The notes beneath the pieces were generated by a model. The model did not search any database and had not been told where the DNA came from. It saw only the letters and a list, made by a program, of their open reading frames with translations. This document shows, in pieces, positions 2,806-61,460 of a stretch of 64,000 bases of DNA; the first letter of the stretch is position 1; every line of letters begins with the position of its first letter. The position numbers were made by a program, and so were the translations under genes. The stretch comes from Enterobacter phage vB_ExiM_F4M1E: the sequence record OL744216.1; one strand, written 5' to 3'.

Positions 2806-3198
2806 ATGACTACTTTCAACGTTTTAAACTTAAACGCTTTTATCGCGGGTTACATTGAGGCAATGTTTTTTGCAGAGTCCGCCACCGATAGCGACGGCGA
2901 AGAAATCGAAAGTTTAGCCGGGTATGAGTTAAGCGCTGAAGCCCTGGACGCTGCCCGCATGGATTGCGCCCGCTTTATGGATGTTGCGCCGCTGTTACTC
3001 AAAGGGGCAATGTTGGCAGGGGTTGACTACGACCACACCCAGGCAGGCCGGGATCTATGGTTTAGCCGTCAAGGTCACGGCGTAGGATTCTGGGATCGCG
3101 GACTTGGGACGATCGGTGATAAACTTCACGACGTGGCGCAGACTTTCGGATCAAAAAATCTGTTTATCAATGATGCTGGATTTATTGAGGTAGAATAA
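2806..3198 (+). CDS. hypothetical protein (130 aa)
   Basis: ORF, acidic. Confidence 0.55.
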   Translation: MTTFNVLNLNAFIAGYIEAMFFAESATDSDGEEIESLAGYELSAEALDAARMDCARFMDVAPLLLKGAMLAGVDYDHTQAGRDLWFSRQGHGVGFWDRGLGTIGDKLHDVAQTFGSKNLFINDAGFIEVE

Positions 3199-3737: not shown

Positions 3738-3989
3738 ATGGAAATCAAACACGTAATTTCTGCAAACGTCGCCGTTTTAGGTTCTGTAAGTGAAACCCGT
3801 GTGAGTCTCGCTAAATGGTGCGCCGCTCAAACTTTCGGGAGTTACGGCGAAAAGGTAACAGAGGTTAAGCGCTTGCTTTCCTTTGGTAACGTGGGCCGCA
3901 AGTTGTTAACAGAGGATATCGCCCGCCGGGTTGAGATCCATTATTCACTTGCTCAAATCATCGTAAAAGAGATCGAAAGCGTAATTTAA
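3738..3989 (+). CDS. hypothetical protein (83 aa)
   Basis: ORF after the promoter at 3656. Confidence 0.55.
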   Translation: MEIKHVISANVAVLGSVSETRVSLAKWCAAQTFGSYGEKVTEVKRLLSFGNVGRKLLTEDIARRVEIHYSLAQIIVKEIESVI

Positions 3990-4025: not shown

Positions 4026-4250
4026 ATGAGAATGATTATCAAAAACACTTTGGGCAAAACTGATTTTCTGCGCTCGCTGGAGATCGGCAAGCCGCAAGCC
4101 TGGTATTGTAAAAAGCTGGCGCATGATGAAATGAAAGATTTTACAGCCACGTTAACCCGCGTTAAAATCAGCATTACCCAAAAGAAAGCGCTTTTAGTGA
4201 TTGAGGGGCAGATCCCGCAAACCGTGATCATTGTTGAGAGGACCGCATAA
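4026..4250 (+). CDS. hypothetical protein (74 aa)
   Basis: ORF with gaggacaa RBS. Confidence 0.45.
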   Translation: MRMIIKNTLGKTDFLRSLEIGKPQAWYCKKLAHDEMKDFTATLTRVKISITQKKALLVIEGQIPQTVIIVERTA

Positions 4251-4251
4251 A

Positions 4252-4476
4252 ATGGGGGCCAATACTCGCAACCGCTACGGCATAACGCGCCGTTTCGGGG
4301 TCTGCTATATGCTGGCAGATGATCCACAATATCGGGCCTTGCTGGAGGCTTACCAGGTCACCAAACTGGACGCCCAAAAGGGCCGGGCCGAACACGACGC
4401 CCACACCGCCAACATTAAAGCGCTTCACGACTTTTTAGCCGTCGCGGAAAAGCGTCACGACATCCGCCACAATTGA
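4252..4476 (+). CDS. hypothetical protein (74 aa)
   Basis: ATG 4252 with gagagga RBS; the track ORF starts earlier at 4231. Confidence 0.45.
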   Translation: MGANTRNRYGITRRFGVCYMLADDPQYRALLEAYQVTKLDAQKGRAEHDAHTANIKALHDFLAVAEKRHDIRHN

Positions 4477-4486
4477 GGGCCGAACC

Positions 4487-4681
4487 ATGATCACAGCTTC
4501 AGAGATCCGCCAAACGTTAGCCGCCTTGCGTTACCTCCACGCCTTACGCCGGGAAAGTGATCCGACTTATGCCGGGTCATGCCTGGCTAACGATGCCGAA
4601 AACGGGATCGCCACACTGAAAGAATTAAATGATCGCATGAGCGACAGCGACCGATCCGACTTTATCGGGGGCGAAATATGA
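4487..4681 (+). CDS. hypothetical protein (64 aa)
   Basis: ORF with gaggg RBS. Confidence 0.45.
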   Translation: MITASEIRQTLAALRYLHALRRESDPTYAGSCLANDAENGIATLKELNDRMSDSDRSDFIGGEI

Positions 4682-4986
4682 TCGCCATTACGCCAACCGT
4701 TTTAGATTGGTATCGCCAGCAGATCGCGCCGCCGCTGGCTATCTTCAAACAGGCCGAAAGCAAACAGCGCCGGATCTCCATTCATGAGATCATTACGCTT
4801 AACGCTGGGCAGAAAATGAATGTTTCCCGGTCCCATATGGGCAACACGTTAGCGCTTTTAAGTTTACGCCGCAAGCGTCAACGGTTAACCCTGGAATCAC
4901 TCCGCATGATGGGACAGCCGCACCAGGTCACCGGGGACAGGATCGCCAGGGCATGGAACCGGGCAAACAGTCGAAAGGCTGGATGA
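4678..4986 (+). CDS. hypothetical protein (102 aa)
   Basis: ATGA-coupled ORF, basic C-terminus. Confidence 0.45.
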   Translation: MIAITPTVLDWYRQQIAPPLAIFKQAESKQRRISIHEIITLNAGQKMNVSRSHMGNTLALLSLRRKRQRLTLESLRMMGQPHQVTGDRIARAWNRANSRKAG

Positions 4987-5128
4987 ATTAACAGTGTTCA
5001 CAGGGGTTGACTTGTTCGCCCCTTTTTTGTTATCCTTTTGTCATGCGATGGCACCTGATGCAGGGGGAGACAAACACCGGACCTGCCCGCTATTCAGGGA
5101 GGCGGACCGGACCTGGGCCGCGCCGGGC

Positions 5129-5150
5129 AAATGAGAATGGTTATCATTCC
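5129..5150. promoter_or_regulatory. Fur-box-like / AATGAT-ATCATT dyad motif (isolated copy)
   Basis: aaatgagaatggttatcattcc resembles GATAATGATAATCATTATC. Confidence 0.35.
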
Positions 5151-5405
5151 CAACAAAATCAAATACATACTTTAAAACCGTTGTCAAATTTATTTCTTAC
5201 CCCTGTATAAATGTACATGCCCGCCAAACGCTCTAAAACGCGTTTTAAGCCGTTTTGCCCTTCCCCGGTATCCTACACCATAAAAATATAGATCGCCCGA
5301 AATCGGACTTTCGCACTTTTTGTCCTTGCAAACGTGAAATTTTTATGTTAGGCCTGAAGGGCTGAAAGCCGGGTGTACGTTGACAAAACTTTACAAAACT
5401 CCCTA

Positions 5406-5434
5406 TTGACGCCCGGCCCGTTATCCCTGATAAT
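5406..5434 (+). promoter_or_regulatory. sigma70 promoter, -10 GATAAT
   Basis: ttgacg, cccggcccgttatccct (17 bp), gataat; leader cgtagggcggcaatgatgcgacggccc follows; second ttgaca at 5381. Confidence 0.55.
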
Positions 5435-5486
5435 GTATCTCGTAGGGCGGCAATGATGCGACGGCCCACAAAGAGGGGACAGTAAA

Positions 5487-5726
5487 ATGAAAGAAATCAT
5501 GACCTTGGTAAAATCCCGTATGTTACGTGGCGGATTCAACGCATACGCCGACGGCAATATCATTGCCACGGTCGCAAAAGTTACAAAAAATGATAATGAT
5601 TCTCAGTTCGCCGGGCAGTATCGGATCTGTTTTACCCGTGGAAAGTTGCAAGGTAAAACGGCATACGCACCAGATTTTCAAGAGCTTAATGATCGTATTT
5701 GCGCCGTTTTAGATTTTGCAAAATAA
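5487..5726 (+). CDS. hypothetical protein (79 aa)
   Basis: ORF after the promoter at 5406; agagggga RBS. Confidence 0.55.
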   Translation: MKEIMTLVKSRMLRGGFNAYADGNIIATVAKVTKNDNDSQFAGQYRICFTRGKLQGKTAYAPDFQELNDRICAVLDFAK

Positions 5727-5729
5727 ATG

Positions 5730-5758
5730 TTGACGCTGGGGCCGAAAGGCCCCATAAT
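5730..5758 (+). promoter_or_regulatory. sigma70 promoter, hairpin spacer (ctggggccgaaaggccc), -10 CATAAT
   Basis: ttgacg, 17 bp palindromic spacer, cataat. Confidence 0.6.
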
Positions 5759-5803
5759 ACCCACTCAAGCAACAAACCACTAAAAACACTGGAGACCGTA
5801 AAA

Positions 5804-6118
5804 ATGACCAAATCTAAATTTTTCGAAATGCTGGATCGCTACCTGTCAAGCCATAACGAGTGGGCCAAACTGGGCAACGGGTACGACTCATACAAGGCCG
5901 AACAGTTAAAACCTTATGTTTTCCATGAGGACCCGGCGAACCTGGAGAAGTGGAAAGCGAAAGATCCGTCCTATCCTTGGACCGCTCACGCTTCAGGCTT
6001 TACCCTGGCTGATTGTTGGCATGTTGAGGTAATGCAACATAAAACCGCTGAAGCCGCCGAAAAACAGCACGTAATTTTCACCCGCTGGATCGCAGACTAT
6101 CAAAAGGCCCGCGCTTAA
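5804..6118 (+). CDS. hypothetical protein (104 aa)
   Basis: ATG 5804 after the promoter at 5730; ctggagacc RBS. Confidence 0.55.
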   Translation: MTKSKFFEMLDRYLSSHNEWAKLGNGYDSYKAEQLKPYVFHEDPANLEKWKAKDPSYPWTAHASGFTLADCWHVEVMQHKTAEAAEKQHVIFTRWIADYQKARA

Positions 6119-6363
6119 TGTCCCGGCTTTTTAAAATCAATCTTCCATTGTGGGCCGCTTTAGCGGTCCTCATTGCCTTTTCTGGCGATACGGTCAACAA
6201 TTGGATTTTGTCCGCTGTACTTGGACCCGATCAAATGGTCACAACATTTTTAAACGCTTTCGGCGCTACACTGGCAACGGCCCGCCTTGCCTATCGTGGC
6301 AAATCAATAAACCGTTATGATCTGGCGCTATCACTGCCCGCCCTGGTTACCTGCCTAAACTGA
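6118..6363 (+). CDS. hypothetical membrane protein (81 aa)
   Basis: ATGA-coupled; hydrophobic segments. Confidence 0.5.
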   Translation: MSRLFKINLPLWAALAVLIAFSGDTVNNWILSAVLGPDQMVTTFLNAFGATLATARLAYRGKSINRYDLALSLPALVTCLN

Positions 6364-6367
6364 AGAG

Positions 6368-6395
6368 GCCCGCCACCCCGGCGGGCTTTTCTTTT
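6368..6395 (+). terminator. rho-independent terminator
   Basis: gcccgcc-acccc-ggcgggc hairpin followed by ttttcttttg. Confidence 0.7.
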
Positions 6396-6695
6396 GTCCC
6401 AAACGTGGCAAGCCTGGAGGCCCGGCCCGGTATCGGTCCGACTCCCCCAGTCAATCCCCTTATCACTTCCATTTGTGGAAATCAACACTTAATTTTATTC
6501 ACTTTAAAGCGCATAATTGAATAAACGAGGAGCTAACCCACTAACCAGGGTTGAGAGTAGCGGCCCGCATAGGGCCTTACAGCGCGTTTTAGCCCCTATT
6601 GACTTCTATCTGCAAACGTGTATCAAGCCGGATCGGTGAATCATCCATTTTCTTTACATAACTTGACACTATTTATTCATTTATCTGCATAATGC

Positions 6696-6713
6696 TAGAA
6701 TGATTCTCATTTA
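6696..6713. repeat. AATGATTCTCATT motif copy
   Basis: tagaatgattctcattt. Confidence 0.4.
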
Positions 6714-6758
6714 CTATCAATAACTTAACTTTTTATTGACTTCTGACAAAACACGGTT

Positions 6759-6906
6759 TTACGTTCCCACGGATCAAGGGAGGGCGCGCCGTAGGCGCGA
6801 CCAATAGAAAACAGGTAACGGATCACCCCCTTTGCTAACTCGCAAAGGATTGTGCTCACGTTCCCACGGTCAAGGGATGACCGCTATCACCTGTTTTCTA
6901 TTGGTC
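6759..6906. repeat. composite direct-repeat/inverted-repeat element
   Basis: direct repeats cacgttcccacggNtcaaggga at 6759-6781 and 6856-6877; perfect 18-bp inverted repeat gaccaatagaaaacaggt / acctgttttctattggtc at 6800-6817 and 6889-6906; GGCGCGCC palindrome inside. Confidence 0.6.
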
Positions 6907-7165
6907 ATTACGTAGTAATAAAACCGCTATTGTCAAGGGCTTTTTAGTGCCTACAGGCACAAATACGAATTATTCTCATCTGCATAAAGATTGGTTTTAT
7001 CTGCATAAGTACGTAAACAGGCGGACCCGTACAGCGTAGCGGGGGCCGCATAGGCCCTACCGGGCAAGGGCCTTTATTGCTCACAAAACAGCCGAAAGCG
7101 TAGTATTTGCCTGGCAAAATTCGCTCTTCGTGTCAAGCGAAAAATAATTTTTTTTTCTTTTTGCG

Positions 7166-7313
7166 TAAACGATAATGATTCTCATCCGAGAACCATTCTC
7201 AAAGGGCTAATGCGAATCATTCTCATTATCATGCCACAAGGTGAGTGAGACTCATTCTCATCCAGGCCAGTGCTGGCGGGCCTCTCCACGTGTTGGGAAT
7301 GATTATCATTCAC
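7166..7313. promoter_or_regulatory. cluster of >=5 Fur-box-like AATGATTCTCAT(T) repeats
   Basis: gataatgattctcatcc, gagaaccattctc, gcgaatcattctcattatcat, gagactcattctcatcc, gggaatgattatcattcac. Confidence 0.5.
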
Positions 7314-7678
7314 GTCAGTGCGTATAAGGTGTATTATGTTAAATGGGGAAATGTTGGGGGAGGCACACCACGGCCCGGCTGTCAATAAGAGAAGTGTAAA
7401 GATGGGCAAGATGGTAGACATTTTGTGACTTTGATCGCGTAAAGTTAGGGGCTACCGATCTGGATTCAAGATTGAGAGGGAGAGGCTAAGTGATTGATTA
7501 TTAAGGATATTTGGGAAAAATAACAGGTGCCCCTCCCCACCCCTGTTCGCCATGCCTGGCAGCTATATCCACACACTGAGATATTTTTCTGGTTTCTGGG
7601 CAAGAAGGGCCACCCCTGATCGCGTTCTAAAAATTTTGGCGGGAGGGTATTTTGACATAAAAAGAGGGCACAGCGCCT

Positions 7679-7870
7679 TACAGGTGAGCCTCTTCAGGCG
7701 TCCCTTGATATTTGGGCAATGTGGGAATACAGACGGGTACGTCTCTGTGGGAACAGGTATACCCGGCGGGAGAGGGCCTCCCGGACGGGGTATGGCGCTC
7801 GCAGAGTTATCAACAGGTCTGCCTCTTTAGGCAGTGGGTACAAGACAGGTTAGGCTCTTCAGGTCTACCA
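7679..7870. repeat. three copies of ACAGGTnnGCCTCTTyAGG plus TGTGGGAA repeats
   Basis: acaggtgagcctcttcagg at 7679, acaggtctgcctctttagg at 7813, acaggttaggctcttcagg at 7845. Confidence 0.45.
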
Positions 7871-7901
7871 GTGTGGGAAACAAAATTGTGGAGGGAGATA
7901 C

Positions 7902-7925
7902 AAAAATACCGCCCGAAGGCGGTTT
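7902..7925 (-). terminator. rho-independent terminator (ccgcccgaaggcgg family)
   Basis: hairpin accgcccgaaggcggt with an A-run on plus immediately 5'; ends the minus-strand gene stopping at 7924. Confidence 0.6.
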
Positions 7926-8361
7926 ATGGTTGGTATGGATCGTGGTAGTAATCCAGGTGGGACAGAGAGTTTCTGAGCACGGTCATATGGATACCTGTCC
8001 ATTCCGACTGTGTGGTGGGGTAATTGGCAACCCAATCCTGAAGACGTGCTTTCAGGACCGGATACTCAACACCGACCTTACCGTGTTTGGTTCGACACAT
8101 CACAATACTGTGGCACAGTTGTCGATAGGCGGTCTCCCGCTCCAACCTGGCGACATACTCCTCGTTGCCTCTCTTCATACGGGCAATCTCCGCATTGAGT
8201 TTACGGCGCTCCCGGAGGTCAGCGCTCCACAGGTGAGCCACGGTAGGCGCAGTTTGGATGTAAGTGATGTGCCTCTTTGGCGTGGGTCCGTACATAGGTG
8301 TTCCTCTTTGGTATGTTTTGGAATATGTGGGGAGTATACGGGAGTTTTGGGAAGAGGTCAA
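7924..8361 (-). CDS. hypothetical protein (145 aa)
   Basis: ORF at the distal end of the minus-strand block; preferred over the antisense 7834..8424. Confidence 0.45.
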   Translation of the reverse strand: MTSSQNSRILPTYSKTYQRGTPMYGPTPKRHITYIQTAPTVAHLWSADLRERRKLNAEIARMKRGNEEYVARLERETAYRQLCHSIVMCRTKHGKVGVEYPVLKARLQDWVANYPTTQSEWTGIHMTVLRNSLSHLDYYHDPYQP

Positions 8362-53324: not shown

Positions 53325-53606
53325 TCAGATCATCTCCATCGTAATCAGTACATTGTCGAGGTCATCAGCAGTAAGCTGGAGTTCAGACTTCATACTATCT
53401 TCCACACGATGATAAATCAACCCCTTTTCCACATATTTAATCATCACATCATAATATTTTCCCAACAGGGTGTCCCATCCACATTCGTAAACAGACACCA
53501 TGCAGACTTTCAGGCCAGCTTTTGCTGAGTGCCATGCCTCACGCACAGCTTCCAGATGGGCTAATTCCAGTTCATCAATTTTATTGCGTTGCTTATTACT
53601 TAACAT
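53325..53606 (-). CDS. hypothetical protein (93 aa)
   Basis: first gene of the minus-strand block, next to an AT-rich divergent promoter region. Confidence 0.5.
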   Translation of the reverse strand: MLSNKQRNKIDELELAHLEAVREAWHSAKAGLKVCMVSVYECGWDTLLGKYYDVMIKYVEKGLIYHRVEDSMKSELQLTADDLDNVLITMEMI

Positions 53607-53953
53607 TCTATAACCCTCATACGGTTGTCTCGTTTCGATGTGTGCATTCTATGATCCAATGATCCTCTTGTCAATACTTTAAATTTAAAATTTTTCATGT
53701 AAGATCTATATAAAGATCCTAAAGATCAATAGAAATCTTCTATTGTTTTCTTGTTTTTAATAATTATTATGAATGAATATGAATAATAATTATAAGATCA
53801 ATAATTTATGAGTGAAACGAATAAATTATAAGATTAATAAAACCGTAGCCCGGAGGGCGAGCGTAGCGAGGTTTTATTTATATTATTGTCTTGTGTGCCT
53901 TTTGAGGAACATACCCCCTGTTGACATCTCGGTGGGTATGTGGAACACTGGAA

Positions 53954-54346
53954 ATGTCTTGGCAGAAGGAGGGTAAAGTGGAAGAGTTGTTTGTGAAGGA
54001 AGGTTCGTTCGTATGCTTCCCTTCTCAATGGGTGTTTGACTTGTCAGGAGACGACCTGAAGAAAATGTTCATCCTGCACTGGAGGTTCAAGTTCTTCGCT
54101 GACCAGGCGTTTGCAGAGGGGAGGGACGTAACCCGGTGCTTCTACGAATCGCAGCAAAAGCTGGCGGTTTTGTTCGGCATGTCTGAAAACTCAAGAACCA
54201 AGGTTGGTGCGTTCCTAAAACGGATGGAAGACAGGGGTTATGTGAAGATACACCGAGACACCGCATTGGTTAATGGGGAGCTAAAACCCCGTCACTACAT
54301 TGTGGTGAACGACAGGATGCTTCTCGGGACTTACAATGTTAATTAA
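53954..54346 (+). CDS. putative winged-helix DNA-binding protein
   Basis: track ORF starts with TTG at 53921; ATG 53954 or the SD-preceded GTG at 53978 is more likely; helix-turn-helix-like SQQKLAVLFGMSENSRTKVGAFLKRMEDRGYV. Confidence 0.45.
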   Translation: MSWQKEGKVEELFVKEGSFVCFPSQWVFDLSGDDLKKMFILHWRFKFFADQAFAEGRDVTRCFYESQQKLAVLFGMSENSRTKVGAFLKRMEDRGYVKIHRDTALVNGELKPRHYIVVNDRMLLGTYNVN

Positions 54347-58764: not shown

Positions 58765-58840
58765 GCTGGATTAGCTCAGTAGGTAGAGCGCCTCACTTGT
58801 AATGAGGATGTCGCGGGTTCGATTCCTGCATCCAGCACCA
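58765..58840 (+). tRNA. tRNA-Thr (anticodon TGT)
   Basis: hand-folded cloverleaf: acceptor gctggat/atccagc, D arm gctcagtaggtagagc, anticodon loop cttgtaa, T loop ttcgatt, encoded CCA. Confidence 0.8.
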
Positions 58841-58846
58841 GATCAT

Positions 58847-58923
58847 GCAACGTTGCCGGAGTCTGGTAACGGCTCTCGCTGCAAACGAGATGATCACTGG
58901 TTCGAATCCAGTACGTTGCTCCA
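58847..58923 (+). tRNA. tRNA-Cys (anticodon GCA)
   Basis: acceptor gcaacgt/acgttgc, anticodon loop ctgcaaa, T loop ttcgaat, CCA. Confidence 0.75.
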
Positions 58924-58924
58924 A

Positions 58925-59001
58925 GCGCCTTTAGTCCAATTGGTAGAGGCACTACATTCAAAATGTAGGGGTTCCCAGTTCGAATCTGGGAAGGCGCACC
59001 A
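58925..59001 (+). tRNA. class-I tRNA with anticodon CAA (Leu-decoding by anticodon; isotype uncertain)
   Basis: acceptor gcgcctt/aaggcgc, anticodon stem ctaca/tgtag, loop ttcaaaa, 5-nt variable loop, A73, CCA. Confidence 0.6.
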
Positions 59002-59010
59002 AATTATCAT

Positions 59011-59046
59011 GTAACCTATTGACATAGTGTAATTATGCTGTTAAGA
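59011..59046 (+). promoter_or_regulatory. candidate promoter for the embedded AT-hook gene
   Basis: ttgaca, 17 nt, taagat. Confidence 0.35.
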
Positions 59047-59073
59047 TGAATACACTAACTCAATGGGGGCATT

Positions 59074-59448
59074 ATGAGCAAGGCTGCGATTGTAACTCGT
59101 AAGCGTGGTCGCCCAAGCAAAGAAGAGAGCACAGCAATTGCCCTTGAAAAGGCAATGCTTGATCTCCGAGGCGAATTGGCCCGTCTGACGCCGAAGGCCA
59201 TTACTACTCTCGAAAACCTGCTCACAACGGGTACAGAGAAGGTGAAGGAAACCACGGCGAAGTATATCCTTGAGCAGGCGAAAGAGGTTAACAACCTCTA
59301 CACTGAAGAGGATAACGAAGACGACGCAGCAGGCGGCACAACATCTGCCTCTTCTGAAACTCACGCTGGTTCTTCTGACGAGATGAAAAATGCCATCCCG
59401 TTGACTACCCAGATTCGTGAGTATAAAGTAGTAGGCGAAGATGATTAA
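59074..59448 (+). CDS. AT-hook-containing acidic protein (124 aa)
   Basis: RKRGRPSK AT-hook near the N-terminus; acidic C-terminus; embedded within the tRNA array. Confidence 0.55.
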   Translation: MSKAAIVTRKRGRPSKEESTAIALEKAMLDLRGELARLTPKAITTLENLLTTGTEKVKETTAKYILEQAKEVNNLYTEEDNEDDAAGGTTSASSETHAGSSDEMKNAIPLTTQIREYKVVGEDD

Positions 59449-59454
59449 TTGGAA

Positions 59455-59476
59455 GGCTCCCGAAGGAGCCTTTATT
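59455..59476 (+). terminator. rho-independent terminator
   Basis: ggctcc-cgaa-ggagcc then tttatt. Confidence 0.65.
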
Positions 59477-59613
59477 AGAAGTTCTCTTTTGACGGGCACT
59501 TGTTAACGACCCGCAGCATGGCGTCGGTGTACAACGGAGTTTGATGGCGAGGAAGGTCTATAGGGATCAGCGCAGATCCTTGGATATCAGGTGAGCCGTA
59601 CAAAAGAGAATTT

Positions 59614-59701
59614 GGGGAGTTATTTCCGTAGAGGTAGCGGTGCAGACTGTAAATCTGTTGTCATTGCGACTCGGGTGGTTCGACTCCATCACTCCCCACC
59701 A
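59614..59701 (+). tRNA. tRNA-Tyr (anticodon GTA), class II
   Basis: acceptor ggggagt/actcccc, anticodon loop ctgtaaa, long variable arm, T loop ttcgact, CCA. Confidence 0.75.
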
Positions 59702-59707
59702 AATTTT

Positions 59708-59802
59708 AGTAGGATGGCTGAGTGGCTTAAAGCAGCATCTTGGAAAGGTGTCGGTCGCAGTGACCCTGCGGCCCGGGAGTTCAAATCTCCCTCCTACTGC
59801 CA
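59708..59802 (+). tRNA. tRNA-Ser (anticodon GGA), class II
   Basis: acceptor agtagga/tcctact, 3-bp D stem with long D loop, anticodon loop ttggaaa, long variable arm, G73, CCA. Confidence 0.7.
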
Positions 59803-59806
59803 GATC

Positions 59807-59884
59807 GGATCGTTAGCTCAATTGGTTAGCAGCAAGGCACTTTTAATGCCGAGGTTCGGGGTTCGAGTCCCTGACGGTCCACCA
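59807..59884 (+). tRNA. tRNA-Lys (anticodon TTT)
   Basis: acceptor ggatcgt/acggtcc, anticodon loop cttttaa, T loop ttcgagt, CCA. Confidence 0.7.
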
Positions 59885-60044
59885 GAAAGAAGAGGGTCCA
59901 AGCTGGTACTGAGTGCTAAAGCATACTCTAAGCCCAGATGGAGGCCACCCTGAAGTCGTCCAACTGAAGGTCCCTGATTGAGTAATACTTCCCCGCCTGT
60001 CGGGTACAGTTCTCAGTCACACCGGACGGGGCGCACCCAATTAT
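59885..60044 (+). ncRNA. 160-nt non-tRNA spacer inside the array; possible structured RNA
   Basis: no cloverleaf or TTCGA T-loop found by hand; GC-rich internal complementarity (ccccgcctgtcgggt...accggacggggcg). Confidence 0.2.
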
Positions 60045-60120
60045 TGGTCTTTCGTATAATCGGTTATTACGGCGGACTGTTAATCCGTTTATCCGGGTTC
60101 GAGTCCCGGAGGACCAGCCA
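60045..60120 (+). tRNA. tRNA-Asn (anticodon GTT)
   Basis: acceptor tggtctt/aggacca (T1:A72), anticodon stem gcgga/tccgt, loop ctgttaa, T loop ttcgagt, G73, CCA. Confidence 0.65.
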
Positions 60121-60158
60121 ATACTTAATCAATAGTCATTTCGATGGCTATTCGTTAA

Positions 60159-60236
60159 GTCCTGGTAGACAAACTTGGTAAAGTCACCACCCTTTCACGG
60201 TGGGGTTTGAGGGTTCGATCCCCTCTCAGGACGCCA
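60159..60236 (+). tRNA. tRNA-Glu (anticodon TTC)
   Basis: acceptor gtcctgg/tcaggac, anticodon stem ccacc/ggtgg, loop ctttcac, T loop ttcgatc, CCA. Confidence 0.7.
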
Positions 60237-60325
60237 ATCTTTTAGGTCGGTAGATTAATGGAGTTGTGGAACTCCACCGGGTTCCAACCCCGGCTCCGGG
60301 GGTTCGACTCCTCACCTTCCTGCCA
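60237..60325 (+). ncRNA. aberrant tRNA-like element ending in CCA (possible Trp-CCA or Pro-TGG loop; fold ambiguous)
   Basis: T arm gggg-ttcgact-cctc and 3' CCA are present, plus two 5-bp hairpins with 7-nt loops (ggagt-tgtggaa-actcc; ccggg-ttccaac-cccgg); acceptor pairing is poor (5/7) and the 5' half is 7 nt too long. Confidence 0.35.
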
Positions 60326-60327
60326 TC

Positions 60328-60434
60328 TTTGAGGTGTTACAGTTAAATCCTGTGTCGGAAGTGCGAATCGCGCGATAGCTGCCAATTGACAACGGGTAAG
60401 GCTGTACAGGACTCGGACTCCCATCTCAAAACCA
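60328..60434 (+). ncRNA. 107-nt CCA-terminated tRNA-like/ncRNA element
   Basis: ends tttgagg...tctcaaa pair 7/7 and are followed by A-CCA; no canonical T loop inside; hairpin tacag-ttaaatc-ctgtg. Confidence 0.3.
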
Positions 60435-60440
60435 AATTCA

Positions 60441-60516
60441 GGTCCTATGGTATCAGCGGTAAACATACTCGCCTGTCACGCGAGAGTCACGGGTTCGAAT
60501 CCCGTTAGGACCGCCA
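60441..60516 (+). tRNA. tRNA-Asp (anticodon GTC)
   Basis: acceptor ggtccta/taggacc, anticodon stem ctcgc/gcgag, loop ctgtcac, T loop ttcgaat, G73, CCA. Confidence 0.8.
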
Positions 60517-60520
60517 CTTT

Positions 60521-60596
60521 TGGGGATTAGCTCAGTTGGTAGAGCAGGCTCTTGATAAGGGTCAGGTCGCTGGTTCGAGTCCAGCATCCCCAACCA
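60521..60596 (+). tRNA. tRNA-Ile (anticodon GAT)
   Basis: acceptor tggggat/atcccca (T1:A72), D arm agctcagttggtagagc, loop ttgataa, T loop ttcgagt, CCA. Confidence 0.8.
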
Positions 60597-60599
60597 ACA

Positions 60600-60676
60600 C
60601 GGTGTGTAGCTCAGTCTGGTAGAGCGATTGCTTTGGGAGCATTAGGTCCGAGGTTCGAGTCCTCGTACACCGACCA
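60600..60676 (+). tRNA. tRNA-Pro (anticodon TGG)
   Basis: acceptor cggtgtg/tacaccg, D arm gctcagtctggtagagc, loop tttggga, T loop ttcgagt, CCA. Confidence 0.75.
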
Positions 60677-60682
60677 ACTTAT

Positions 60683-60757
60683 TGCGAGGTAGTTCAGCGG
60701 TAGAACAGGGGTCTCATACGCCTCATGTCGGCAGTTCGATTCTGCCCTTCGCAACCA
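60683..60757 (+). tRNA. tRNA-Met (anticodon CAT; elongator, initiator or Ile-lysidine type not resolved)
   Basis: acceptor tgcgagg/cttcgca (T1:A72), loop ctcatac, T loop ttcgatt, CCA. Confidence 0.75.
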
Positions 60758-60762
60758 GCTTT

Positions 60763-60840
60763 GCTCCAGTAGCCCAATTGGCAGAGGCACTTGATTTAGG
60801 TTCAAGTCAGTGATGAGTTCGAATCTCTCCTGGAGTACCA
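60763..60840 (+). tRNA. class-I tRNA with anticodon TAG (Leu-decoding by anticodon; isotype uncertain)
   Basis: acceptor gctccag/ctggagt, anticodon stem cttga/tcaag, loop tttaggt, short variable region, weak 3-bp T stem, A73, CCA. Confidence 0.55.
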
Positions 60841-60847
60841 CATTAAA

Positions 60848-60924
60848 GCATCCATAGTGTCAGTGGTCTAACACTCCGTCCTTCCAAGTCGGAACCCTCG
60901 GTTCGAATCCGAGTGGATGCTCCA
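60848..60924 (+). tRNA. tRNA-Gly (anticodon TCC)
   Basis: acceptor gcatcca/tggatgc, loop cttccaa, T loop ttcgaat, U73, CCA. Confidence 0.75.
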
Positions 60925-60964
60925 ATTTAATTGCCCGTGGTGATCGGGTTATCTCACCCAGTGT

Positions 60965-61040
60965 AGGGGATTAGTTTAATTGGCAAAACAGCGGGTTTTG
61001 ATCCCGCTAACGCGAGGTTCGAATCCTCCATCCCCCGCCA
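60965..61040 (+). tRNA. tRNA-Gln (anticodon TTG)
   Basis: acceptor aggggat/atccccc with A1-C72 mismatch, D stem gttt/aaac, anticodon stem gcggg/cccgc, loop ttttgat, G73, CCA. Confidence 0.7.
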
Positions 61041-61042
61041 AA

Positions 61043-61112
61043 CTAAAGGGTTTTCGAAATGGTAGCGCTGCCGCTCTGCAAACCCACCCGCAAAGCTGCG
61101 AGAACCCTTTAG
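61043..61112 (+). ncRNA. 70-nt hairpin element closed by a perfect 10-bp inverted repeat
   Basis: ctaaagggtt at 61043-61052 and aaccctttag at 61103-61112 enclose ~50 nt with sub-hairpins (ctgcaaa loop; cgca-aagc-tgcg). Confidence 0.35.
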
Positions 61113-61113
61113 T

Positions 61114-61189
61114 GTGGCCTTAATTCAGCAGGTAGAATCCCCGGTTGTGAACCGGGCAGTCGTGGGTTCAAGTCCCACAGGTCACCCCA
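61114..61189 (+). tRNA. tRNA-His (anticodon GTG)
   Basis: acceptor gtggcct/aggtcac, anticodon stem cccgg/ccggg, loop ttgtgaa, T loop ttcaagt, C73, CCA; no encoded G-1. Confidence 0.75.
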
Positions 61190-61194
61190 ACAAT

Positions 61195-61287
61195 GGAAGA
61201 TAGGGCGTAGTGGTACGCACCCGGATTTGAACCCCGGCCCGCTGTGGCGACCCCACGGTGATAGTTCGACTCTATTATCTTCCGCCA
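61195..61287 (+). tRNA. tRNA-Ser (anticodon TGA), class II
   Basis: acceptor ggaagat/atcttcc, 3-bp D stem, loop tttgaac, 22-nt variable arm, T loop ttcgact, G73, CCA. Confidence 0.7.
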
Positions 61288-61291
61288 ATTT

Positions 61292-61379
61292 AGAAGAGTG
61301 GCGAAATCGGTAGCCGCACCGGACCGCTAATCCGGGGTCCCCTCGGGGCCTGAGAGTTCAAGTCTCTCCTCTTCTGCCA
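61292..61379 (+). tRNA. tRNA-Ser (anticodon GCT), class II
   Basis: acceptor agaagag/ctcttct, anticodon stem ccgga/tccgg, loop ccgctaa (C at position 33), long variable arm, T loop ttcaagt, G73, CCA. Confidence 0.65.
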
Positions 61380-61384
61380 AACAT

Positions 61385-61460
61385 GGAACTGTAGCTCAGT
61401 TGGTAGAGCGGTTGCCTGAAGAGCAGCGCGTCAGCGGTTCAAATCCGTTCAGTTCCACCA
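61385..61460 (+). tRNA. tRNA-Phe (anticodon GAA)
   Basis: acceptor ggaactg/cagttcc, D arm agctcagttggtagagc, loop ctgaaga, T loop ttcaaat, A73, CCA. Confidence 0.85.

Follow-up and report, generated by a model that had tools for sequence, protein, structure and literature searches.

We analyzed a 64,000-nucleotide stretch of Enterobacter phage vB_ExiM_F4M1E (sequence record OL744216.1; hereafter the window, 64 kb of a genome of ~150 kb) with regard to its non-coding zone at positions 6391-7907, which carries a candidate recombination site for the proteins XerC and XerD of the host, similar to the bacterial dif site, next to an array of palindromic boxes similar to binding sites of the host iron-sensing protein Fur. 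The zone lies between convergent gene blocks. The left, plus-strand early-gene block ends at 6363 and is closed by an intrinsic terminator, and the right, minus-strand block, ending at 7924, is closed by a bidirectional terminator hairpin. An initial annotation of the window had described this region as gene-free and dense in repeats, and the observation was confirmed: among 19 open reading frames (ORFs) of at least 30 aa inside 6391-7907, none was intact in all 12 aligned relatives (the best was intact in 8 of 12), and the zone is left empty in most relatives' annotations. All repeats that the annotation listed were present where it had placed them, and each was enriched or tightly clustered. 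Its interpretation was supported in part, and the dif-like site had been overlooked. The principal features are as follows, with the strand given where one is assigned.

6364-6390, plus strand: intrinsic terminator, an 11-bp GC-rich stem followed by a T run
6663-6693, plus strand: sigma-70-like promoter candidate, TTGACA-19 nt-CATAAT (consensus match only)
6695-6714: Fur-like box 1, CTAGAATGATTCTCA, scoring 14/19 against the 19-bp Fur consensus; coincides with the start predicted for the 6663-6693 promoter candidate
6750-6937: structured element comprising two small hairpins, a three-way junction closed by an 18-bp stem, and a variable trailing hairpin (6907-6925)
6964-7008: weak Fur-like box 2, TACGAATTATTCTCA, and after it two (T)ATCTGCATAA copies
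7165-7313: array of five Fur-like 7-1-7 boxes (7170-7184, 7187-7201, 7211-7225, 7246-7260 and 7294-7308)
7317-7344, plus strand: dif-like Xer core, with XerC arm AGTGCGTATAA (7317-7327), spacer GGTGTA (7328-7333) and XerD arm TTATGTTAAAT (7334-7344)
7908-7923: bidirectional terminator hairpin

The stretch 6300-8000 showed 85-92% identity to Certrevirus phages of Cronobacter (CR8, CR3 and CR9), Klebsiella (KaOmega), Pectobacterium (P7_Pc and phiTE) and Enterobacter (SS-2025). Judged by this similarity, the source phage is a virulent Certrevirus, an rV5-related member of the Vequintavirinae, and not a T5-like phage. The initial annotation had assumed a T5-like phage and argued from adsorption to the Fur-regulated receptor FhuA. 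This argument does not apply because the phage is not T5-like, and the receptor route of the relative phiTE is the flagellum (PMC3475682). Across the Cronobacter, Pectobacterium, Klebsiella and Enterobacter phages, identity within the zone was 80-90%, and the flanking genes, which encode small proteins of PHROG families without assigned function, were often swapped between relatives. Conservation of the zone while adjoining genes are often replaced indicates that it is under selection as non-coding DNA.

By sequence comparison, the most widely conserved element of the zone is the candidate Xer core. E. coli dif, GGTGCGCATAA-TGTATA-TTATGTTAAAT, is a string confirmed in the literature; the phage core matched it at 24 of 28 positions (9 of 11 in the XerC arm and all 11 in the XerD arm), and only 3e-6 such matches are expected in the window. 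The organization was that of the Xer-core class, with 11-bp arms around a center of 6-8 bp, the arms being constrained and the center variable among homologues. When the core was used as a query, 5,262 of 5,426 E. coli genomes were matched, with a median of one place per genome, and the best matches were dif-like sites at the termini of filamentous (Zot/pIV) prophages, elements known to exploit Xer. For example, two E. coli chromosomal sites beside Zot and pIV-secretin genes (1506-1533 and 3006-3033 of the retrieved stretches) read AGTGCGCATAATGTATATTATGTTAAAT, and these prophage-junction sites have the extended left flank ACGTCAGTGCG in common with the phage site. The same query retrieved 277 phage records, chiefly Vequintavirinae, with CTXphi as a positive control, and each Certrevirus record contained the core at a single place. 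Also among the matching records were 18 labelled as Campylobacter phages (D1, C7, A141 and A112b among them; 135-141 kb, unannotated), which matched the core at 24 of 27 positions, as rV5-like coliphages do; these may be mislabelled, or the match may be due to chance in AT-rich DNA.

Six Vequintavirinae lineages were examined (SSBI34, W70 and four named genera), and all of them had the Xer site, at the same junction and in the same orientation. In FV3, SSE121, KNP2, W70 and SSBI34, it occupied one and the same extended non-coding gap, bounded by the same convergent blocks. The sites read as follows.

FV3: GGTGCGCATAA-TGGGTA-TTATGTTAAAT
SSE121: GGTGCGTATAA-CGTGTA-TTATGTTAAAT
KNP2: AGTGCGTATAA-CGTGTT-TTATGTTAAAT
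W70: AGTGCGTATAA-GTTGTA-TTATGTTAAAT
SSBI34: AGTGCGTGTAA-GGTATT-TTATGTTAAAT
Certrevirus (15 of 15 sequences): spacer GGTGTA, arms identical save for A/G at the first base

Thus, the XerD arm was invariant and the XerC arm matched dif at 8-11 of 11 positions, and the six lineages had six different spacers, none of which was the host TGTATA. The spacer was constant within Certrevirus, and the flanks of the site could not be aligned between genera. Fixed arms, a non-host spacer that varies with lineage and unalignable flanks are what a working Xer site would show if it recombined with another copy of the same phage, and plasmid Xer sites have the same pattern. The zone and flanks of FV3, the E. 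coli-infecting relative used for this search, had no match in the 5,426 complete E. coli genomes, and the zone of the window had none in 72,556 plasmids. The lack of integrated or plasmid copies suggests that the site is most likely used in lytic growth, phage against phage. A four-gamete test gave a peak of 0.86 at 7350, an equal peak at 6670-6720 and a plateau between them, which is consistent with recombination at the core and not specific for it. In the literature searched, no paper linked Vequintavirinae or rV5 with Xer or dif, or described dif-like sites in virulent tailed phages.

The second conserved component was the set of boxes. Aligned copies of the motif form a 15-bp 7-1-7 palindrome, TGAGAAT-N-ATTCTCA, which agrees with the Fur 7-1-7 consensus TGATAATnATTATCA at 12 of 14 positions. 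With up to two mismatches, AATGATTCTCAT had 23 matches in the window versus 6.4 +/- 2.5 in shuffled sequences, and all matches with 0-1 mismatch were within 4026-7310; TGAGAATNATTCTCA, also with up to two mismatches, had 10 matches in the 64 kb, all in 4027-7308 (3.3 kb). The copies listed by the initial annotation were all recovered, and it had missed those at 4027, 5591 and 7187. Compared with the 19-bp Fur consensus GATAATGATAATCATTATC, which is confirmed in the literature, 14 segments scored at least 14/19, of which 12 were within 3.9-7.9 kb, and they were often paired at a 6-bp offset, as in natural multi-hexamer Fur sites. With up to three mismatches this consensus had no match in the window, the best score being 15/19. 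The resemblance is nevertheless real and is stronger in relatives: scores were 14-15/19 here and reached 17-18/19 in six relatives, namely 18/19 in phiTE, CB7, DU_PP_I and PcCB7V and 17/19 in KaOmega and CR3, where the box is the one adjoining the Xer site. Moreover, the motif was kept in every relative, so that a refuting condition named by the initial annotation, absence from the homologous region of relatives, did not hold. The 18/19 match, GATAATGAGAATCATTATC, is part of a 57-nt insertion between window positions 6994 and 6995 in phiTE (3797-3815 of its stretch), CB7, DU_PP_I and PcCB7V, and PcCB7V has a second inserted box copy, GATAATGAGAATCATTATT (17/19). The boxes of SSBI34 are diverged in sequence yet Fur-like (16/19), which argues for selection on the motif and not simple sequence inheritance; for example, its equivalent of box 1, GAGAATAATTATCATTAAC (16/19), is nearer to the Fur consensus despite the divergence. 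Binding of Fur to these boxes is predicted from this resemblance.

The five-box array is conserved in relatives, and 8 bp separate the end of its last box from the XerC arm. Among the Certrevirus sequences checked, the 6 nt between the ATCATT of this box and the XerC arm were fixed in length and variable in sequence. In other genera, Fur-like boxes were found 170-215 bp upstream of the core (SSE121 and KNP2) or just downstream of it (FV3). The array boxes were without a convincing promoter, save for a -10-like string intrinsic to the Xer core, and box 1 coincides with the predicted start site of the TTGACA-19-CATAAT candidate. This candidate and an overlapping one on the minus strand (6720-6692) were the highest-scoring sites in a position-weight scan and are nearly invariant in aligned Certrevirus relatives. 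Because the scan was noisy (732 matches in the window at the threshold), only the candidate at 6663-6693 was used here, as a predicted promoter. Three further boxes lie outside the zone.

4027-4041: outlying Fur-like box overlapping the start codon of ORF 4026-4250
5132-5146: outlying Fur-like box, intergenic
5591-5605: outlying Fur-like box inside ORF 5487-5726

The box at 4026-4041 has one mismatch where it overlaps the start of ORF 4026-4250 (ATGAGAATGATTATC); the true start of this ORF may be the second ATG, at 4032, because the PHROG model aligns from residue 4.

The same palindrome, AAATGAGAAT-N-ATTCTCATTT, is arrayed in T5-like phages in the untranslated stretch that closes the left terminal repeat on its inner side (Spc35 2141-2644 and DT57C 6971-7580 of the retrieved stretches), where the arrays adjoin DnaA boxes and GTGCAAATCCGAC repeats. 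The five-box array of the window was 74-80% similar over 49-71 nt to these arrays. In Davison's terms, this T5-like region matches Repeat Region 3, the injection-stop region with its DRC repeats and palindromes, for which no binder was proposed and in whose description the word Fur is absent (bioRxiv 10.1101/866236). Like the Certrevirus zone, Repeat Region 3 is long, non-coding and located between convergent blocks. In contrast, only the T5 region has a fixed terminal-repeat boundary, paired DnaA boxes and nine DRD repeats, and only the Certrevirus zone has the Xer site: no dif-like site of at least 19/28 was found in the Spc35 and DT57C regions. In addition, none of 19 left-end DT57C proteins tested (pre-early and adjacent early, including the DNA-binding A2) had a homologue in the 64-kb window, which makes a host protein common to these Enterobacterales the simpler binder.

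The third component, the structured element at 6750-6937, includes the direct and inverted repeats that the initial annotation had pointed out without noticing the fold they belong to. The two 18-nt halves of the closing stem (6799-6816 and 6889-6906) are 100% complementary. ACGTTCCCACGG forms a direct repeat, with copies at 6761 and 6858 that both read ACGTTCCCACGG(A)TCAAGGGA. The minimum free energy was -68.1 kcal/mol, with z = -5.9 for the plus strand and -6.4 for the minus strand. RNAalifold on 14 sequences gave 50 pairs, 9 of them with compensatory changes, and 98.4% of cells were paired; none of 500 shuffles reached the observed values, and slid controls had 0-2 compensatory pairs. For example, TTTGC/GCAAA is replaced by GGCGC/GCGCC or CGTTGC/GCAACG, and CAGGT/ACCTG by GGGT/ACCC. 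Neither the loops nor the two ACGTTCCCACGG(A)TCAAGGGA copies varied, and the trailing hairpin had at least five unrelated sequences, all of which pair. The element was found only in Certrevirus and SSBI34, and a scan of viral contigs added two homologues. A 16-base degenerate pattern run on metagenome and genome contigs gave chance matches only, none with the second hallmark, the pattern being too short. Rfam contained no family for 6750-6937; across the window, the threshold was passed by tRNAs only, a permissive scan of 6300-8000 gave terminator-like noise, and matches over the terminator at 6364-6390 were weak and terminator-like only. This covariation-supported element of ~190 nt is a candidate new structured RNA. 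The predicted promoter at 6663-6693, with Fur-like box 1 at its predicted start and an IHF-consensus match shortly downstream, is the likeliest driver of a transcript that would contain it. The relative phiTE has a known antitoxin-mimic RNA (pseudo-ToxI), and this possibility was rejected for the zone: no ToxI-like sequence or 36-nt tandem repeat was found in the homologous stretch of phiTE or in the zone. We also observed at 7701-7727 the sequence TCCCTTGAT-11 nt-GTGGGAA, the reverse complement of the motif TTCCCAC...ATCAAGGGA that occurs twice in the element; this inverted copy of TTCCCAC...TCAAGGGA is 900 bp away and has a longer spacer.

We compared the Xer site and its surroundings with known systems. 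Normally, recombination at dif depends on the action of FtsK at the septum. In cer and psi, accessory sequences of ~180 bp on the XerC side, bound by PepA and by ArgR (at an ARG box) or ArcA, make recombination FtsK-independent and selective for resolution. Such plasmid sites serve stable inheritance. Like ColE1 cer and pSC101 psi, the phage has a 28-30-bp core with XerC and XerD arms, a spacer unlike that of chromosomal dif, one site per replicon and ~150-180 bp of protein-binding sequence on the XerC side, a layout that is established for cer and psi and predicted for the phage's boxes. In contrast to these plasmids, the replicon is a strictly virulent myovirus of ~150 kb, and Fur-like palindromes are found where ArgR or ArcA boxes would be. 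Dimer resolution requires accessory sequences (PMC7399989). The core also resembled the XerC/D (pdif) site beside blaOXA-24 on the Acinetobacter plasmid pMMA2 (25/28, with the same spacer GGTGTA and inner arm bases CGTATAA...TTATGTTAA). However, pdif sites are paired, bracket mobile modules and are without accessory sequences (PMC7399989), whereas the phage has one site per genome and the outer bases of its XerC arm follow enterobacterial dif (GTGCG). As for chromosomal dif, the arms (9/11 and 11/11), the 6-bp spacer and the location where opposed gene blocks converge are similar, whereas the spacer is GGTGTA and not TGTATA. A further similarity is to the attP sites of integrative mobile elements exploiting Xer (IMEX), which are small temperate, filamentous or satellite elements that exploit host XerCD and integrate at dif. 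CTXphi, VGJphi and the E. coli Zot/pIV prophages carry such phage-borne dif-like sequences, and the same query retrieves IMEX sites. IMEX attP sites typically have degenerate XerD arms and often longer spacers (PMC3025954), unlike the phage site with its perfect XerD arm and 6-bp spacer different from that of host dif; in addition, no integrated copies of the phage were found. Finally, the boxes are like enterobacterial Fur boxes in their 7-1-7 identity, 19-bp scores and 6-bp-offset overlaps, and unlike them in belonging to a virulent phage, in being mostly off clear promoters and beside a recombination site, and in having G/C at position 4.

Taken at about even strength for and against, our preferred explanation is that the zone is a conserved cis-acting non-coding region at the convergent early-gene junction that consists mostly of docking sites for host DNA-binding proteins and combines a XerCD site, Fur-like boxes in accessory and operator roles, and a structured, probably transcribed element. 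The sequence matches with their clustering and conservation, and the covariation, are observed; binding of XerCD and Fur, the outcome of recombination and transcription are inferred. This suggests that a strictly lytic phage may recruit host chromosome-maintenance and iron-sensing proteins. Host XerCD would bind 7317-7344 and recombine two phage copies with each other, thereby resolving or unlinking circular multimers or interconverting forms of replicating phage DNA; because the spacer differs from that of host dif, no recombination with the chromosome would be expected. Host Fur would bind TGAGAAT-N-ATTCTCA, with the five boxes filling 150 bp on the XerC side as the accessory sequences of cer and psi do. 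The array boxes may be an architectural element, an iron-dependent gate on the Xer site, or both, and another box is located on the predicted sigma-70-type promoter (6663-6714), which probably drives a non-coding transcript including 6750-6937. A bolder version, which we consider speculative and rather improbable, is that Fur is an accessory architectural protein of an iron-gated, FtsK-independent XerCD switch that controls the topology of replicating DNA (monomer circles, multimers and concatemers) across Vequintavirinae.

Several observations weigh against the preferred explanation. The boxes consistently have G/C where Fur prefers T/A (position 4; TGAGAAT versus TGATAAT), so another protein could be the true binder, and most of them overlap no convincing promoter. 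W70 has the Xer site and no Fur-like boxes within 2.5 kb on either side, which indicates that the two modules are separable. Neither an ARG box (up to three mismatches) nor an ArcA box was found in 7080-7320; for PepA sites there is no consensus suited to such a search. FtsK-orienting polar sequences (KOPS) numbered four on the plus strand and six on the minus strand in the 64 kb, near expectation, with no enrichment or polarity at the site, which is a further difference from chromosomal dif. A virulent phage with headful packaging has no obvious need for dimer resolution, excision of monomer circles from concatemers could hinder packaging, and FtsK at the septum is normally required for recombination at dif. 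Strand signals of the structured element conflict, since its core folds better on the minus strand and its trailing hairpin on the plus strand, and the element may act as RNA or as DNA. With regard to KOPS, a single reverse copy at 7531-7538 (CCCTCCCC, i.e. CCCTNCCC) points to the Xer site and is in a block conserved among relatives; it may be there by chance because KOPS overall are neither enriched nor polar. Also unlike a chromosome with dif, the genome is divided into four orientation blocks and not into two replichores (PMC7344957).

Two other explanations concern the boxes. Replicating genomes, with 10 boxes each in 3.3 kb, might titrate Fur and derepress iron uptake, or Fur might repress promoters of non-coding RNAs when iron is plentiful, with the Xer site as an independent neighbor. 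The box on the best promoter candidate fits such a role, and so do W70, which has the Xer site without boxes, and the T5-like phages, which have boxes without an Xer site; on the other hand, the five boxes lie directly against the XerC arm with a gap of 6 nt whose length was fixed in the Certrevirus sequences checked, and boxes recur near the core in other genera. We regard a Fur sink or iron-responsive promoter control, the idea of the initial annotation, without a link to Xer as possible and not probable. It is also unlikely that the boxes are operators for a phage-encoded regulator and merely resemble Fur boxes. Their shared and consistent departure from the Fur consensus (ATTCTCA, TGAGAAT) would be explained in this way, they are confined to the early region, and the small proteins encoded nearby include one with a sub-threshold HTH_ParB match; however, the same arrays are present in unrelated T5-like phages, the 19 DT57C left-end proteins had no homologue in the 64-kb window of the ~150-kb genome, and relatives drift toward the Fur consensus (18/19). 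The HTH_ParB match is that of ORF 4678-4986 in Pfam (E = 0.004; 17.6 bits versus a cut-off of 22.6), the sole hint of DNA binding among eight flanking ORFs tested.

The remaining explanations concern the zone as a whole. An origin of replication, one of the roles proposed in the initial annotation, appears improbable: the zone is conserved and non-coding and has iteron-like direct and inverted repeats, cruciform potential, an IHF-like site, an A/T tract and promoter-like sites, whereas it is located at a convergent junction, no DnaA motif (TTWTNCACA) was found in 6391-7907, both the GC-skew minimum and the lowest GC content (27-33%) of the window fall within 53.4-54.0 kb, at a divergent junction, and the best-conserved element is a recombination site of the kind that marks the terminus in bacteria. 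Use of the Xer site for IMEX-like integration into host dif, or for a plasmid-like carrier state, would agree with the extended ACGTCAGTGCG shared with filamentous-prophage junctions, the closest E. coli matches, and with the part of plasmid Xer sites in inheritance. This is very unlikely in view of spacers unlike host dif in all six lineages, the absence of chromosome or plasmid matches and the arms and spacers of IMEX attP sites, which differ from those of the phage (PMC3025954); in addition, phiTE has been described as a lytic phage that lacks an integrase or any remnant of one (PMC3475682). The least probable explanation, to which we give hardly any weight, is that the zone marks a terminal-repeat boundary or stops injection as in T5. 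The link to the injection-stop region that the initial annotation had suggested was borne out insofar as Repeat Region 3 has the same palindrome arrays and a similar non-coding, convergent and repeat-dense layout. The boundary function itself is excluded by the relatives phiTE and CB7 (not the source isolate), whose genomes, according to restriction analysis, BAL-31 digestion and read depth, have terminal redundancy and are circularly permuted (PMC3475682, PMC7344957), so that there is no fixed end for the zone to mark, and the paired DnaA boxes of the T5 region are absent. In the GenBank record of PBES 02, the two ends fall on the arms of the 18-bp inverted repeat: the sequence stops at the left one (window 6815; record end 149652-149732) and resumes at the right one (~6890). 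Because this break is inside an inverted repeat and ~73 nt between the arms are missing, it is probably an assembly artifact at the hairpin and not a physical end.

If host XerCD and Fur act on the zone as proposed in our preferred explanation, several implications follow. Known carriers of Xer sites are chromosomes, plasmids and small elements, temperate or filamentous, with integration at dif; a single-copy site at one junction across a subfamily of large lytic phages (277 records) would imply that virulent phages, too, depend on the host dimer-resolution machinery. Phages similar to rV5, PVP-SE1 and phiTE are candidates for therapy and biocontrol, and host dependency on Xer could affect host range or resistance. 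In addition, the topology of phage replication becomes testable with simple tools. The Fur-like arrays give the T5 injection-stop repeats, described since 1987 with no proposed binder, a concrete hypothesis, Fur binding; and if the Fur-gated Xer switch were true, the arrays of T5-like phages would represent convergent use of Fur as a DNA-organizing factor.

Other features of the zone are listed below.

6720-6692, minus strand: overlapping promoter candidate, TTGATA-17-TAGCAT
6715-6727, plus strand: IHF-consensus match, TATCAATAACTTA (WATCAANNNNTTR), the only one in the zone
7139-7163: conserved A/T tract immediately left of the box array
7680, 7813 and 7845 (in 7680-7879), plus strand: small hairpin repeats ACAGGTnnGCCTCTTYAGG
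7720, 7746 and 7872, plus strand: three copies of TGTGGGAA within 160 bp; the window-wide count is not above chance

The core of the IHF match, ATCAATAACTTAA, was invariant in aligned relatives, with the first base varying in two. ATCTGCATAA had three exact occurrences in the window, all inside the zone. The hairpin repeat ACAGGTNNGCCTCTTYAGG was found at 7680, 7813 and 7845 with 0-1 mismatch, and with up to three mismatches the pattern had 5 matches versus 0.29 expected. Copy number of the hairpin repeats varied among relatives, with five ACTCTTTAGGC units in SSBI34. Within the zone, the interval 7560-7907 varied most: small GCCTCTTYAGGC hairpins and motifs rich in G were gained and lost among relatives, and phiTE and CB7 have an HNH endonuclease gene within it. 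Besides the TGTGGGAA copy within 7701-7727, the other two copies are half-sites of the structured-element motif. A hairpin module, GTAGCGG(C/G)CCGCATAGG(G)CC, was observed at 6558-6583 and 7036-7060, ~480 bp apart; the first copy was highly conserved and the second was swapped for other hairpins in some relatives.

Elsewhere in the window, the interval 53400-54000 had the lowest GC content (27-33% in 300-bp windows), the minimum of the cumulative GC skew and a switch in skew sign, and one DnaA-consensus box was found at 53425. These features suggest a divergent junction that would be a better origin candidate than the zone studied here. Finally, 18 tRNA genes were clustered on the plus strand at 58765-61460.

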